Below the pieces are notes generated by a model that was given only the letters and a program-made list of their open reading frames with translations, ran no database searches and was not told the origin of the DNA. From the NCBI GenBank assembly GCA_963826525.1, contig CAWGXH010000004.1, positions 160,001 through 224,000 on the forward strand: a DNA stretch of 64,000 bases, read 5' to 3'. Source of the stretch: an uncultured Methanomicrobiaceae archaeon. Its GTDB lineage: Archaea > Halobacteriota > Methanomicrobia > Methanomicrobiales > Methanoculleaceae. The position numbers and the translations under genes are program-made. How positions within the stretch are numbered: position 1 is the stretch's first letter; each line of letters begins with the position of its first letter. This document shows positions 250 to 63,940 of this stretch, in pieces.

Positions 250-1623
250 TCACAGGTTCCTTTTCAGATGCTTCCAGACCGGCGAGCACGTGGTGACGTA
301 CACCTCGCGGGCGAACCTGACCGCCCCTTCAAAGCCGGCCAGACCGTCTTTCCGGTCATGGTTGTGGTCGACGAAGCCGATACCCAGTTTGTAGGCAAGG
401 ACGCGTTCCTTTACACCGCCTGCCATGACGTCGACGTTCATCTCGAGGAGGAATTTCTCGAGTTCGGCGGGGTTGGCGTCGTCGATGATCACCGTCCCCT
501 CGTTCAGGAGATCGCTCAGGTTTTCATACTCCTCTTTCTTTCCGGTCTGCGTCCCGGTGAGGACAATCTCCATACCGAGTTCCCGCAGCTGCCGGATGAT
601 GGCGACCGCCTTGAACGCACCGCCGACGTAGATCGCCGCCCGTTTGCCGGTGAGCTTCGTTCGGCACTTCAGGATCTCCGGTCGAATTCGGTTCGTCTCC
701 CGCTCGATGAGTGTCTCAGTCCGGCGGACGATCTCTTCGTCCCCATAGAATGCGGCGATCTTCCGGAGACTCTCAGCCGTATTTTCTGCGCCGAAGAAGT
801 TCACGTCGAGCGAGGGGGTCCCAAACTTCTCTTCGAGCTTGCGTGCAAGCCAGTGCATGGAGCCGGTGCACTGGACGATGTTTAAACATGCTCCGGGCGC
901 CTGCTTCAGTGCGGCAACAGTGGAATCCCCGGTAAAGGCTACGTTGATCTCGATACCGATCTCCCGCAGGTATCGCTCGACGACCCATTTCTCGCCGCCC
1001 AGGTTGTACTCCCCGAGAAAGTTGAGCTTCCGGGTCTTCGGGGCGACCTCTCCCTCTTTCGGGGTGATTAACCGGAGCAGCGCTTCGGCGGCGGCCCGGT
1101 ACCCGACAACCTTGTTGCCGGAGATAAAGCCGCTCGATTCGACCGGGATCACATCGATACCGTGCCGGTGTGACGCATCTTTGCAGACGGCGGTGATATC
1201 GTCACCTATCATCCCGACGACGCAGGTCGAGTAGACGAAGACCGCCGGGGGGCGGTACTTCGCGACCACATCGTCGATACAGGCGGTAAGCTTCGTCTCC
1301 CCGCCGAATACCACGTCTCTCTCTTTCATGTCGGTGGAAAAACTGTTCCGGTACATCTCGGAACCGCTCGACAGACTCCCCCGGATATCCCACGTGTAGG
1401 TTGCGCAGCCGATAGGGCCGTGGACGAGGTGGATTGCATCCGTCACCGGATTCAATACCACCCGTGCCCCGCAAAACACGCAGGCACGCTGACTGACGGA
1501 TCCCGCGAGGCTATCGTCGGTGCAGTGTATACTGCTCTTGTTCTTCCCCGTGGTTATGATGGAGTTTTGACGTTCCGTGATGAACTCAGGCGATCCGCCG
1601 GTCAGCGAACAGGTATTCTCCAT
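250..1623 (-). CDS. nifE: Nitrogenase cofactor scaffold subunit NifE
   Basis: SQRACVFCGARVV, HGPIGC, YSTCVVGMIGDD, VQC motifs; position after nifK. Confidence 0.93.
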   Translation of the reverse strand: MENTCSLTGGSPEFITERQNSIITTGKNKSSIHCTDDSLAGSVSQRACVFCGARVVLNPVTDAIHLVHGPIGCATYTWDIRGSLSSGSEMYRNSFSTDMKERDVVFGGETKLTACIDDVVAKYRPPAVFVYSTCVVGMIGDDITAVCKDASHRHGIDVIPVESSGFISGNKVVGYRAAAEALLRLITPKEGEVAPKTRKLNFLGEYNLGGEKWVVERYLREIGIEINVAFTGDSTVAALKQAPGACLNIVQCTGSMHWLARKLEEKFGTPSLDVNFFGAENTAESLRKIAAFYGDEEIVRRTETLIERETNRIRPEILKCRTKLTGKRAAIYVGGAFKAVAIIRQLRELGMEIVLTGTQTGKKEEYENLSDLLNEGTVIIDDANPAELEKFLLEMNVDVMAGGVKERVLAYKLGIGFVDHNHDRKDGLAGFEGAVRFAREVYVTTCSPVWKHLKRNL

Positions 1624-60206: not shown

Positions 60207-60981
60207 CTACAGCAGTATAAGGGCGACGAAACCTGCGGCAGAGAGTGCCATCAGGACGAACCCGACCCCGTCAACGGCACCGAAACCGACCTCACGCAGA
60301 GGCGTCCGGGTTCCGTTCCGGTACCCCCGCAGGTCGATCGTCAGGCCAAGGACGTTCGCTTTCCCGAGAGAGTTTGAGACCAGCGGGATGATCACCGGGA
60401 AGAGACTCCTGATCTTTCCTGCGAGCCCCTTCCCCGGCGCATATGCCCGGGCAAGCTGTGCTTCGTGAATCCGCTTTCCCTCGAGCCTGAAGGCTCGGGA
60501 TAAACCGCAGCGCGATCAGGAACATGAGGGTATAGTCGATCGGCATGTGAAGTTTGTCCATCACCTGCACGAGGTCGCGGGGCTGCGTGGAGACGATGAA
60601 GAGCTGGAAGGCAAAGATCATCGCAACGAACCGCAGGGTCATCGAGGCCGCAAGGTCGACGGCTCCCATAGTGATCGGGATATACCCGCCGAAGATCGGG
60701 ATCAGGTACCCGAGCACCTCGCCGCTCTGCAGGGTCAGTACCGTCAGGATGAGCAGGCTGACGGCGAGGGATATGAGGAGGGGCACCTGCCGCAGGAGCT
60801 CGCGGGCAAGGCCGCTCACCGCTGCTGCGATCAGGATCAGGCCGACGAGCAGCGTGAGTGCCGGAACCTCGGTCAGGATGACGGCGAGGACGACCACAAG
60901 CCCGGTGAAGACGACCTTGGTCATGGGGTTTAAACGGTGGAAGTAGCTGTCCCTGTTGATATACTGCATAATTTCTGGCAT
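60207..60981 (-). CDS. ecfT: ECF transporter T component (+1 frameshift at ~60486)
   Basis: SYFHRLNPMTK, TQPRDL, IALRFIPSL, corrected QLARAY, DLRGY coupling-helix motifs. Confidence 0.9.
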
Positions 60982-63032
60982 GCAATCTCCTCAAAGTTCC
61001 GGACGTCCCGGAGAATGATTCCGTCTTCCATTGCAATGATACGGTCGGCATACTCACGCACGAGCCGCATGTTGTGAGTGACCATCAGGATGGTGCACCC
61101 CTCCCTCTGGAGCCGCTGGACGATCTCCATCACGCGCTGCGTCTCCCGGGCATCGAGTCCGGTCGTCGGCTCGTCGAGAACGATCACCTTCGGGCGCATG
61201 GCGATGACGCAGGCGAGGGCAAGGCTTTGGCGTTCTCCACGGCTGAGCGAGCGGGGATACTGGTTCCGGTGATCGGCGAGGCCGACCTCTGCGAGGACGG
61301 CATCGATCAGTTCCCGGTGATCGGCAAGCCCGATGTTCGAAAGGCCGAACGCGATCTCCTCCTCCACTGTCTCGGCAAAGAGCATGGTATCGGGGTTCTG
61401 GAAGACGAGGCCGACGTGCCGGGCGAGCTCCGTCACCGGTGTCGTGGCCGCATCGAGCCCGTCGACAAGAACGGTGCCCTCGGTCGGCCTGAGCAGCCCG
61501 TTGAGATGCTTGACAAGAGTCGTCTTCCCGGAGCCGTTTTCACCGACGATGGCAACGATATCGCCGGGAAGTATCTCGAGGTCCACGCCTGCAAGAGCAG
61601 TCGCCTCTCCATACCGGTGGACAAGCCCGCGGATGGTTATAATCGGACTGATGCCCGCGGATGGCTGCGCAGGGGCGGACATCGGAGCAGCAGGGAGAAT
61701 TTCGGGCTCGGGTGCATCGTCGACCTCGATGAGGCTTCTGACACGCTCGCTCTTCAGCAGGACGTCCGGGGCTCCCTCGGCCGCGATTTTTCCGTCCTCT
61801 ATCAGGATCATGCGGTCGGCCAGCCGGGAGAGTTCATCGACTTTGTGCTCGACGATCACGATCGTCTTTCCTTCCTCCTTCAGGCGCTGCAGGATCCCGA
61901 GGATGGCCTCGGTGGCGATTGTATCGAGTTCCGCCGTGGGTTCGTCGAGGATGAGGAGATCCGTTCCGAGCGCCAGCGTGGCTGCGATCGTAACCCGCTG
62001 CTTCTGGCCGCCCGAGAGGGTGTGCGGTGCACGTTCCAGCAGGTGGGCGATACCGGTGACATCGGTGACGTAGTCCATCCGTCTCTGCATCTCGGCACGG
62101 TCGAGCCCCTGATTCTCAAGACCCGAGACCACTTCTTCCTCGACCGTGGTGAAGATGAGCTGGGCGTCGGCATCGTCGAAGACGACCCCGACCTTTTTCC
62201 CGATCTCACCCATATCCCGGTAGGCCGCGACGTCCTTTCCGGCGATGCTGAGATTGCCGGCAAACGCGCCGCCGTATTCGTGGTAGAGAATGCCGGACGC
62301 GGCAAGGCAGAGCGTTGTCTTCCCGGCACCGGTCGGGCCGGTGACGAGAAGGCACTCCCCCCGCGCGACGTCGAGGTCGATGCCGGCAAGGGCGGGACGC
62401 GTCCCCTGCGGGTAGGTGTAGGATACGTTGCTCATGCTGATCGGCGCATCGGCCTTCGGATTCCTGACGGCCGGGCTGGAGTTCCCCTCGCCGCCGCCCG
62501 GCGCAAGGCGGTACTGTGTCCGCATCAGGACGCGGGATGCAGGCATGTAGAGGGCCTGTGCGACCACCCCGTTGGCACCTGCAGCCAGCAGGACGATCGG
62601 CACCGTGACGATCAGGAACGCATCGATTGTGCCGTACTTCCCGACGATGACCGGGTACTGGGCCATAATGGCAATGGCAACGAACGTGAGGCCGCTTGCC
62701 AGCGTGGCGATGAAAGTCGTTATCGCAGGCGCCACGACGATACGGTCGCGGAGCAGGAGAATGACACCAAGGCAGACGATTGCCCCGATAGGTTCGCTGA
62801 TCAGGTTTCCGGGCGGGAAGACCGAGTGGCTGATCAGGGCACAGACGACTCCCGAGACGATACCGATGCCGACTGCTTCCTTCACCGTCGGTATGATGAG
62901 GATGATGGCAAGGCAGTAGAAGGCAATAACCAGGTTCGAGACGATGGGTCCCGGCACCAGGAGGGAGAGGTATCTCACGATCGCCCCGATGGCGAGGAGG
63001 ATACCGACGATTGCTATATCTCGTGATTTCAT
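60930..63032 (-). CDS. ECF transporter: TrpP-like S component fused to two ABC ATPase domains
   Basis: ~170-aa hydrophobic N-terminus (GILLAIGAIV…NLISEPIGA…ATLASGLTF), then GPTGAGKTT/LSGGQKQR/DEP and GENGSGKTT/LSRGERQ/DEP. Confidence 0.85.
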   Translation of the reverse strand: MKSRDIAIVGILLAIGAIVRYLSLLVPGPIVSNLVIAFYCLAIILIIPTVKEAVGIGIVSGVVCALISHSVFPPGNLISEPIGAIVCLGVILLLRDRIVVAPAITTFIATLASGLTFVAIAIMAQYPVIVGKYGTIDAFLIVTVPIVLLAAGANGVVAQALYMPASRVLMRTQYRLAPGGGEGNSSPAVRNPKADAPISMSNVSYTYPQGTRPALAGIDLDVARGECLLVTGPTGAGKTTLCLAASGILYHEYGGAFAGNLSIAGKDVAAYRDMGEIGKKVGVVFDDADAQLIFTTVEEEVVSGLENQGLDRAEMQRRMDYVTDVTGIAHLLERAPHTLSGGQKQRVTIAATLALGTDLLILDEPTAELDTIATEAILGILQRLKEEGKTIVIVEHKVDELSRLADRMILIEDGKIAAEGAPDVLLKSERVRSLIEVDDAPEPEILPAAPMSAPAQPSAGISPIITIRGLVHRYGEATALAGVDLEILPGDIVAIVGENGSGKTTLVKHLNGLLRPTEGTVLVDGLDAATTPVTELARHVGLVFQNPDTMLFAETVEEEIAFGLSNIGLADHRELIDAVLAEVGLADHRNQYPRSLSRGERQSLALACVIAMRPKVIVLDEPTTGLDARETQRVMEIVQRLQREGCTILMVTHNMRLVREYADRIIAMEDGIILRDVRNFEEIACQKLCSISTGTATSTV

Positions 63033-63096
63033 ATTCGATCGTTAGGTTGGGATATTCGGATAGCGATGCGGGCTATGGAGTGAACGGTAAGAAAAA

Positions 63097-63189
63097 TCAC
63101 CAGGGACGCCAGCGAGGCTGTGAGACCGGCCGTTTGACAGGGGAGGCCATCCGGCACACTGCATGGGAGCCGGAAGATATCGGGCACAT
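63097..63189 (-). CDS. Candidate 30-aa leader peptide MCPISSGSHAVCRMASPVKRPVSQPRWRPW
   Basis: Manual translation; two TGG codons among the last four sense codons, followed by TTTTTCTT. Confidence 0.4.
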   Translation of the reverse strand: MCPISSGSHAVCRMASPVKRPVSQPRWRPW

Positions 63190-63207
63190 TACATTATGAA
63201 ACATCTA

Positions 63208-63233
63208 TGTATAAACTTGTACATTTGAGTATA
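63208..63233. promoter_or_regulatory. TRP-box-like array overlapping the transporter promoter
   Basis: TGTATA-aact-TGTACA-tttg-AGTATA; overlaps minus-strand TATA-like elements. Confidence 0.5.
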
Positions 63234-63310
63234 TATAATCACCTCTTTGCTGTCGCACTATCGTGGCGATCTGTGGGGCTGCCGCAAAAATAGATTGACC
63301 TGATGAAGCG

Positions 63311-63940
63311 TTACCGGTGACGCATCGCCAGCAGTGCGCCCGCAGCAATCAATGCGGCAATGGTGCCGGCAAGCGGGGCAGGAACCGGTGTCGGCTCAGG
63401 AGTCGCCACCGTCGTCTCCGGCGTGGCGGTCGGTGACGGTGTTGGTGCAGGAGTGAGCTCCGCCGGAGGTTCGGTAGCCGGCGTCTCGACGGCACCGACC
63501 GACCCGGGCCCAATCAGGATGACCGGAGTAACGACGTACGAGTGGCCGGCAAGATCCCTGCGATCGACAGGTGCATCGACAACGTACACCGAGTAGGTTC
63601 CACCGTCAAGACCGGTGCCGACCGTATCCCACTTCACGGACCAGGTGTTGTCCGCCAGAACCGGGGCCGTGGTAAAGGTGCCGGGCTCTCCGGTAATGAC
63701 GGGGTCAAAGGGCTTCTCCAGGCTTCCTCCGCCCGCCGGGAGATTCGGACCGGTCACGAAGAGATAGACCGTATCGCTTCCGGTGCTCGTCCCCGACAAG
63801 GGAATCTCTTCACCGAGGTACGCAGTAACACTCTGCTCTGCGCTTACGGGCAGCACCACCCCGGCGGCGAGGATGAGGAGCAGGACGCAGGCAGATGCCC
63901 ACGGCACACCGCTCCCGACAGGTCTCAACAGAAGGCGCAT
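63311..63940 (-). CDS. Secreted or surface protein with Pro/Thr linker and C-terminal membrane anchor
   Basis: Signal peptide, YLFVTGPNLP, PTPSPTATPETT linker, TM helix plus MRHR. Confidence 0.8.
   Translation of the reverse strand: MRLLLRPVGSGVPWASACVLLLILAAGVVLPVSAEQSVTAYLGEEIPLSGTSTGSDTVYLFVTGPNLPAGGGSLEKPFDPVITGEPGTFTTAPVLADNTWSVKWDTVGTGLDGGTYSVYVVDAPVDRRDLAGHSYVVTPVILIGPGSVGAVETPATEPPAELTPAPTPSPTATPETTVATPEPTPVPAPLAGTIAALIAAGALLAMRHR

Follow-up and report, generated by a model that had tools for sequence, protein, structure and literature searches.

Within a 64,000-nucleotide (nt) stretch of DNA from an uncultured Methanomicrobiaceae archaeon (contig CAWGXH010000004.1, positions 160,001 to 224,000; hereafter the window), we analyzed the leader of a minus-strand gene encoding a TrpP-like transporter of the energy-coupling factor (ECF) type. 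The 278-nt intergenic region upstream of this gene contains a short upstream open reading frame (uORF). Comparison with related loci indicates that this leader very probably holds a translated, conserved, and regulatory uORF, and that the ribosome reading it probably gauges the supply of tryptophan (Trp). The uORF, the conservation of its frame and of its peptide, an invariant Trp codon near its stop, and an operator shared with Trp biosynthesis genes were computed directly. On this basis we incline towards a two-tier control, in which a repressor bound to repeated hexamers and a Trp-sensing leaderless uORF would set the output of the transporter.

The leader open reading frame and its conservation

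The uORF lies on the minus strand with the following features:

63097..63204, minus strand: leader uORF, 35 codons plus TGA, encoding MFHNVMCPISSGSHAVCRMASPVKRPVSQPRWRPW up to the stop; frame and end are kept in relatives, with variation at third codon positions
63097..63099, minus strand: TGA stop codon of the uORF (63099 to 63097)
63109..63111, minus strand: invariant Trp codon TGG within CGC TGG CGT (R-W-R), termed region 1; G-TGGCG is invariant in 23/23 aligned leaders
63100..63102, minus strand: second, terminal Trp codon TGG, present in the genus of the window and independently placed in the Methanofollis-like group (WRPW, WRTW, HWRW, or SWRW before the stop)

The encoded peptide ends in RWRPW and the TGA is directly followed by TTTTTCTT. 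Two TGG codons among the last five would arise by chance with p ~0.002, taking p(TGG) ~0.015 per codon from the base composition of the uORF; the stronger case for the uORF is its conservation across relatives. A first-pass annotation, made from the sequence alone, had described an ORF of 30 codons from ATG 63189, or 17 codons from ATG 63150, with the same C-terminal end. Both are in-frame internal ATGs of the uORF and give these lengths. The start that it proposed, ATG 63189, has to be revised, as comparison of the related leaders places the conserved start at ATG 63204.

Thirty-six unique related leaders from Methanoculleus, Methanofollis, and their kin carry the Trp motif, which reads CGY TGG CG around the TGG, or CTGGCG or GCTGGTGA in the Methanofollis-like group. 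The uORF starts were placed by a promoter matrix blind to the reading frame, and 32 of the 36 leaders received a start automatically. In 31 of these 32, an uninterrupted frame runs from the promoter-adjacent start to an in-frame TGG; the exception, L046, has a GTG start in another frame. Of the other four leaders, L039 keeps the frame through 117 codons, and L073 and L096 do so from the homologous ATG; in L027, the start lies 21 nt after the second operator box described below. The distance from ATG to TGG takes 13 distinct values (54–228 nt) among the 31 leaders, every one of them a multiple of 3. The corresponding 12 or more frame-keeping changes in length would be very unlikely without translation (~(1/3)^12, a figure that kinship makes approximate). 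The stop codon follows the invariant TGG within three codons in 25 of 27 loci, and the uORFs of 28 out of 30 loci end in TGA. The conservation of an ORF with a terminal Trp codon, which the first-pass annotation had proposed to check by aligning orthologous leaders, is therefore borne out.

The C-terminal end of the peptide occurs in several forms. It reads [LF]F[WR]PxxQPRWR(P/S/T/Q)(Y/H/W)-stop in Methanoculleus and in the genus of the window, HWRW, SWRW, or RRW before the stop in the Methanofollis-like group, and CWQWRLH before the stop in a third group. Over codons −4 to +1, entropy is 0.35, 0.29, and 0.80 at codon positions 1, 2, and 3, respectively. All four synonymous codons are in use for the proline at −6 (0.25/0.41/1.91). 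The ratio of nonsynonymous to synonymous polymorphism (pN/pS), computed over 10 codons of 24 unique sequences, is 0.46 in frame versus 1.12 and 1.39 in the shifted frames. The entropy pattern and the pN/pS values indicate that the last ~10 residues are under selection at the amino acid level.

Purifying selection on a conserved C-terminal motif would also be expected if the uORF encoded an independent micro-protein of 24–38 residues, whose function might be, for instance, that of an accessory of the transporter or of a regulator. We consider this very improbable. The N-terminal half of the peptide is not conserved, its length ranges between 24 and 117 codons, in part through repeats that expand it in frame, it has no hydrophobic segment, and many close relatives have lost it. 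Exact look-up of four uORF peptides in a collection of 15 billion proteins returned none of them, although gene callers seldom call ORFs so short. No second copy of the leader motif was found elsewhere in the genome of the window.

The longest uORF, in L039, owes its length to a 39-nt (13-codon) tandem repeat in 3.3 exact copies (positions 879..1008 of that locus), which leaves the frame unbroken. Inserts related to this repeat are found in L016 and L070, whose uORFs have 67 and 80 codons.

Promoter elements and the hexamer operator

Upstream of the uORF, three elements were delineated:

63229..63238, minus strand: TATA-box-like element TTATATATAC, its centre ~30 nt upstream of ATG 63204; an AT-rich 8-mer at equal distance from the operator is conserved in related promoters
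63208..63223, minus strand: operator made of TGTACA (box 1, 63223..63218), agtt, and TATACA (box 2, 63213..63208), two hexamers with a 10-bp period
63198..63203, minus strand: weak third hexamer TGTTTC in the 10-bp register, read by eye and overlapping the TG of the uORF start codon; TGTGCA, TGTTTA, or TGTATT stands there in relatives

We collected 96 unique upstream regions of transporter loci from Methanomicrobiales and Methanosarcina. A TATA element followed by a pair of TGTACA-like hexamers in 6-N4-6 arrangement is present in 74 of the 96 (0.6 expected from shuffled sequences). The same 6-N4-6 motif is found at −32/−33 of a trpB2-like gene in 22 of 30 relatives, where 0.06 would be expected. 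In the genome of the window (G000), it precedes trpB2-like (NF009057, 741 bits), trpE, trpD, and trpA. N4-spaced sites stand before only two Trp genes there, the transporter and trpB2, and one further weak N4 site occurs in this genome. A loose hexamer-pair pattern was not enriched genome-wide (11 vs. 10 in the control). By sequence, repeated hexamer boxes thus overlap the predicted promoters of trp genes, as in the TrpY/TRP-box regulon. We take TGTACA to be the TRP-box consensus of TrpY; a literature search for TrpY together with TGTACA turned up nothing relevant. In Methanothermobacter thermautotrophicus, TrpY represses trp genes by binding TRP boxes (PMC6737238).

In 22 of the 30 trpB2 promoters (L112–L141), the motif has the form TGTATA-N4-TGTRCA, at a fixed place 32–33 nt before the ATG. 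Box 1 doubles there as the only TATA-like element and GGTGATCC-like Shine-Dalgarno (SD) bases abut the ATG, so that the trpB2 mRNA may have a very short leader. The Methanosarcina transporter loci (L075–L105) show three hexamers with a 10-bp period (TGTACA-ttat-TATGCT-ctat-TGTACT). Their leaders are long (~70–250 nt) and AT-rich, and no conserved uORF starts from the homologous position.

In the leaders related to that of the window, the uORF start codon lies 0–3 nt after box 2 and ~30 nt from the centre of the TATA element, and no SD precedes it. This TATA-to-ATG distance and the lack of an SD fit a leaderless or nearly leaderless mRNA. Translation of the uORF probably begins from ATG 63204, and this codon would lie at the very 5′ end of the mRNA or only a few bases from it. 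The first-pass annotation had likewise suggested a leaderless start, and this idea is plausible, albeit from another ATG and another TATA box than those it selected: it had taken TTTATACA as the promoter box of ATG 63189. We rejected this assignment. TTTATACA (63215..63208) is box 2 plus two bases, its hexamer aligns with operator box 2 in relatives, and ATG 63189 is shared only by the window and its closest relative (L001, L002). The TATA box is TTATATATAC.

Proposed tryptophan sensing, RNA structure, and alternative readings

The first tier of the control that we propose would be a putative DNA-binding repressor of the TrpY kind, acting on the hexamer repeats between the TATA element and the start codon. 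Since the same repeats stand at the trp operon, transporter and biosynthesis would form one regulon. In the second tier, when charged tRNA-Trp is scarce, the ribosome would linger on the UGG beside the stop and stay on region 1. When Trp is plentiful, it would terminate, leaving 50–70 nt of naked, G-poor leader. Ribosome occupancy might then decide the fate of the spacer, through oligo-U termination (in the genus of the window), cleavage, and/or refolding of region 1 with a second region, and the fate of the spacer would set the amount of transporter made. Four parts of this scheme are inferred: that the start is leaderless, that the ribosome stalls at UGG, which way the response goes, and how the output is brought about. 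We also put forward, tentatively, a more specific version for Methanomicrobiales, in which two sensors would act on one promoter. A TrpY-type repressor would read free Trp on the DNA, and a leaderless leader peptide would read charged tRNA-Trp, its conserved C-terminus, rich in Pro, Arg, and Trp, holding the ribosome at a single UGG next to the stop. Such an attenuator would work without the bacterial hairpin switch, for example by shielding the G-poor or oligo-U spacer from the termination or cleavage machinery.

Three features downstream of or overlapping the uORF end are relevant to these steps:

63033..63096, minus strand: untranslated G-poor spacer of 64 nt from the uORF stop to the transporter start
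63089..63115, minus strand: terminator-like unit, a weak 7-pair stem TCGCTGG/CTGGTGA followed by TTTTTCTT; one found, versus 0.1 ± 0.4 in shuffled sequences
63054..63069, minus strand: homologue of the conserved non-coding region 2, which may pair with region 1; its sequence is GCATCGCTATCCGAAT in the window and GGATCGCCCGTCGAAC in Methanoculleus

Across 30 loci, the spacers are 48–76 nt long and contain 15% G and 34% C; their first 30 nt are 67% pyrimidine. In the window, the T-tract TTTTTCTT (63096..63089) directly follows the stop and leaves ~56 nt to the transporter ATG at 63032, in agreement with the ~55 nt first reported. Both arms of the terminator-like stem hold a TGG, and the 3′ arm also holds the stop codon.

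Several observations, gathered in this and the next two paragraphs, weigh against a ribosome that senses Trp through its codons. Only one Trp codon is invariant; at position −7, where a second one can stand, ~12 of 29 unique leaders have Arg. Moreover, conservation extends to neighboring residues (Q-P-R-W-R and the Pro at −6), beyond the needs of a pure codon sensor. This excess of amino acid selection lends some weight to a nascent-peptide arrest sensor, in which the C-terminus [LF]F[WR]PxxQPRWRxx-stop would stall elongation or release in the ribosomal tunnel, either constitutively or with free Trp, and in which Trp would matter as a residue. Selection indeed spans ~10 C-terminal codons and not the TGG alone, Pro, Arg, and Trp abound in the peptide, and its stop is almost always TGA. 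TnaC also provides a precedent, since free L-Trp stalls the ribosome that translates this leader peptide (PMC8429421). The Methanofollis-like group, in contrast, keeps only xWRW or RRW before the stop, and stalling at high Trp would need to turn down an importer, with no obvious way to do so. In TnaC, the Trp is ~12 residues before a C-terminal Pro-stop; in the uORFs, only 0–3 residues separate it from the stop, and the peptide ends in Y, H, W, C, G, or A. Considering both sides, we judge arrest by the peptide to be unlikely.

As regards the start of the uORF, conservation of its ATG alone is no evidence of translation, because this ATG overlaps the possible third hexamer. Ten Methanoculleus leaders without the Trp motif, 79–105 nt long (L005, L008, L047, L051, and L093 among them), keep the operator and the start ATG and lack ~70 nt of leader; their loss of the motif implies that the uORF layer is dispensable. 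In five of these ten, the uORF stop overlaps the transporter start in an ATGA, an arrangement suited to termination-reinitiation coupling, and in the other five the uORF ends 4–36 nt before this start. Leaders of other families (L056, L061, L067, L095, and L107) also have a uORF ending in ATGA over the transporter start; there the start ATG is not conserved among relatives. The Trp-less leaders, together with the lack of a consistent structural switch (see below), would suit a translated uORF that does not sense anything. Such a leaderless entry ORF, starting at the ATG in the third hexamer, would load ribosomes and either keep the leader unfolded or set a constant level of downstream translation, with Trp control exerted by the DNA operator alone. 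It leaves unexplained the invariant TGG beside the stop in at least four lineages (the genus of the window, Methanoculleus, the Methanofollis-like group, and the L071 group), as well as the extra Trp codons and the conserved peptide before a Trp transporter. This alternative seems to us improbable, and Trp sensing by the ribosome is the reading that we retain.

The search for a switch in the RNA itself gave mostly negative results. A T-run of at least 5 within 30 nt of the stop is present in 3 of 30 loci (L001, L002, and L021), and one of at least 4 in 5 of 30. The oligo-T tract is therefore limited to the genus of the window and one Methanofollis-like locus, and we rejected it as a general feature of these leaders, contrary to the conservation first envisaged. 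Even in the window, a ribosome at UGG and one at the stop are not clearly told apart by the geometry of the stem. The leader of the window folds no better than shuffled sequences (z = 0.19). We did not find a conserved terminator/antiterminator pair (RNAalifold −3.43 kcal/mol, with 0 compensatory pairs in the helix between regions 1 and 2), nor a single conserved partner for region 1, whose predicted partners in single-sequence ensembles vary from locus to locus. Blocking the footprint of a ribosome at the Trp codon changed the predicted accessibility of the SD/AUG in only 5 of 30 loci, upward in 1 and downward in 4. By thermodynamic prediction, its mean unpaired probability over the 30 loci is 0.54 both free and blocked. 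A model in which the stalled ribosome unmasks the ribosome-binding site was thus rejected for want of a consistent folding effect. Of the Trp-codon attenuation initially proposed, the ORF and its terminal Trp codon have held; the oligo-T tract has not, and neither the search for alternative hairpins nor the predicted start-site accessibility lent support. Control of read-through or downstream translation by stalling is therefore inferred.

Other structural signals are present. Region 1 (CGY-U-GGCG) can pair with region 2 (CGCC-C-G-U-CG), which lies ~25–35 nt before the transporter ATG. This helix is paired in 93–100% of alignment cells, with changes only from G-C to G-U and no double changes. 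Region 2 and a CCCATAC block are conserved although non-coding. In a GC-rich hairpin inside the uORF (P1), 6 of 9 pairs persist despite two-sided changes, which alter the encoded residues. Over the whole structure, 84% of cells are paired, versus 33–50% in slid controls. These signals would be expected of a structured RNA leader that binds a protein or a ligand through P1, region 1, and region 2, the open frame being incidental. The frame argues otherwise, being kept in 31 of 32 leaders through 13 length classes all divisible by 3, with third-position periodicity and the low pN/pS reported above. Furthermore, covariation support for P1 and P2 is not better than in shuffled alignments (19/500 and 92/500), and no Rfam family, Trp_leader included, matched the leader of the window or 10 related loci at permissive thresholds. 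We therefore regard an RNA acting without translation as decidedly improbable, less so only than the micro-protein.

A sub-threshold Rfam match to snoR14, a plant C/D-box snoRNA (63174..63247, minus strand; 20.4 bits vs. 40, E = 0.82), falls in the AT-rich promoter and was taken as chance. The Rfam matches far upstream in related loci are tRNA-Val genes, not tRNA-Trp. A T-box-like reading of GCTGGTGACCGC in Methanofollis-like leaders was rejected, no Rfam T-box model matching.

The transporter locus and comparison with known systems

The gene downstream of the leader and its neighbor encode components of an ECF transporter:

60930..63032, minus strand: regulated gene, a fusion of 700 amino acids (aa) comprising a TrpP-like ECF S-component (~175 aa) and two ECF ATPase domains (TIGR04520, 411.7 bits; TIGR04521, 390.5 bits)
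60210..60981, minus strand: ecfT (CbiQ family), the transmembrane component, frameshifted near 60486/60487

The N-terminal domain of the window protein has no match in Pfam, TrpP included, or in NCBIfam, even at E up to 10. PF17099 (TrpP) is matched by 7 of 17 orthologues that are 56–89% identical (best 8.7e-13), most homologues at 59–76% identity carry a precomputed PF17099 assignment, and several are named tryptophan transporter or TrpP in their source. We take the regulated gene as a divergent TrpP-family S-component, whose substrate would be Trp or a precursor. The membership in a TrpP-like family given by the first-pass annotation agrees with this and with a promoter operator in common with the trp operon. 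The associated energizing module consists of the two fused ATPase domains and the downstream CbiQ/EcfT gene.

The frameshift in ecfT is due to one extra G (tcaGGctcga vs. tcagctcga in the same-genus genome G001), and a tblastn search with an intact 257-aa EcfT orthologue splits into two frames (residues 1–195 and 163–257). It reflects either a real pseudogene or an assembly error, the genome being 87.6% complete. The S-component is fused to both ATPase domains (676–746 aa) in the genus of the window, L022, L024, and G037. It stands alone (~175–190 aa) in Methanoculleus and most others, and G027 and G037 have two tandem S-component genes. The orthologue in G034 (L143, G034:C15:35000-39800, minus strand) is the last gene of a cluster with overlapping ends, composed of a trpB2-like gene (471 aa), a 386-aa ORF, a 527-aa ORF, and the S-component. 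The 527-aa product resembles an AMP-forming ligase by eye, from its C-terminal reading, and this transporter gene lacks a separate promoter and leader. The same ORF also lies upstream of the S-component in L026, L028, and L109. Upstream of the leader in the window, a gene at 63311..63940 (minus strand) encodes a 209-aa protein without Pfam match; by eye, its N-terminus resembles a signal peptide, a linker rich in Pro and Thr follows, and the C-terminus is a hydrophobic anchor with basic residues at its end. Many Methanoculleus loci also show, upstream, gene ends with similar hydrophobic tails that finish in basic residues.

Leader-peptide attenuation is a textbook bacterial mechanism, and transcription and translation are coupled in Archaea as well. 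No archaeal leader-peptide attenuator was found in the full-text literature searched, a coverage that leaves out most subscription journals. If our proposal holds, the locus would represent a ribosome-mediated amino acid attenuator in Euryarchaeota. It would illustrate how a uORF on a leaderless mRNA can act as a sensor, and how a ribosome can tune archaeal oligo-U or factor-dependent termination, or re-initiation. It would also extend a TrpY-type regulon to an uptake system, and it flags an unannotated class of small ORFs (0/4 peptides in the protein collection). The leader is a compact, conserved candidate with ~30 natural sequence variants, for which the relatives without the motif are built-in natural controls. 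It is carried by the cultured Methanoculleus formosensis, M. nereidis, M. palmolei, and M. frigidifontis.

Like the enterobacterial trpL, the leader of the window has a short ORF with Trp codons near its stop, in front of a gene of the Trp economy, and a weak hairpin with a U-tract directly after the ORF. It differs in being archaeal and probably leaderless, with no SD and one invariant Trp codon, in lacking a conserved U-tract or a conserved terminator/antiterminator alternative among those searched for, in its target, a transporter, and in the conservation of the residues next to the Trp. In mycobacteria, leaderless small open reading frames with Cys codons (polycysteine) act as attenuators, and stalled ribosomes block a duplex sequestering the downstream ribosome-binding site (Canestrari et al., 10.1101/834739). 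As described there, a leaderless short first cistron uses cognate codons as the sensor and exerts control in cis within the same amino acid economy, as we propose here. In our archaeal leaders, however, the SD/AUG accessibility is unchanged in 25 of 30 loci when the Trp-codon region is blocked, and one to three Trp codons replace the Cys tract.

TnaC of the Escherichia coli tna operon, an arrest peptide that senses free Trp (PMC8429421), is likewise encoded in a leader, conserves Trp and Pro residues, stops at UGA, and is followed by an untranslated spacer ahead of the regulated gene. Its conserved residues are spaced differently, and Trp would be expected to repress rather than induce an importer. 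With its low G and high C content, the spacer resembles a Rho-loading site; Rho is not known from Archaea. The TrpY/TRP-box system of M. thermautotrophicus resembles the first tier by its repeated hexamers overlapping a trp-gene promoter in a methanogen, the motif being common here to the trp operon and the transporter. Neither a transporter as a member of the regulon nor a uORF layer is mentioned for TrpY in the available text of PMC6737238. Finally, the trpP (yhaG) gene of Bacillus subtilis, which belongs to the same transporter family (PF17099), is also under RNA-level Trp control in its leader: TRAP, a Trp-activated RNA-binding protein, blocks the ribosome-binding site (PMC10327191). The archaeal leader shows no GAG/UAG repeats and instead carries a uORF that is very probably translated.

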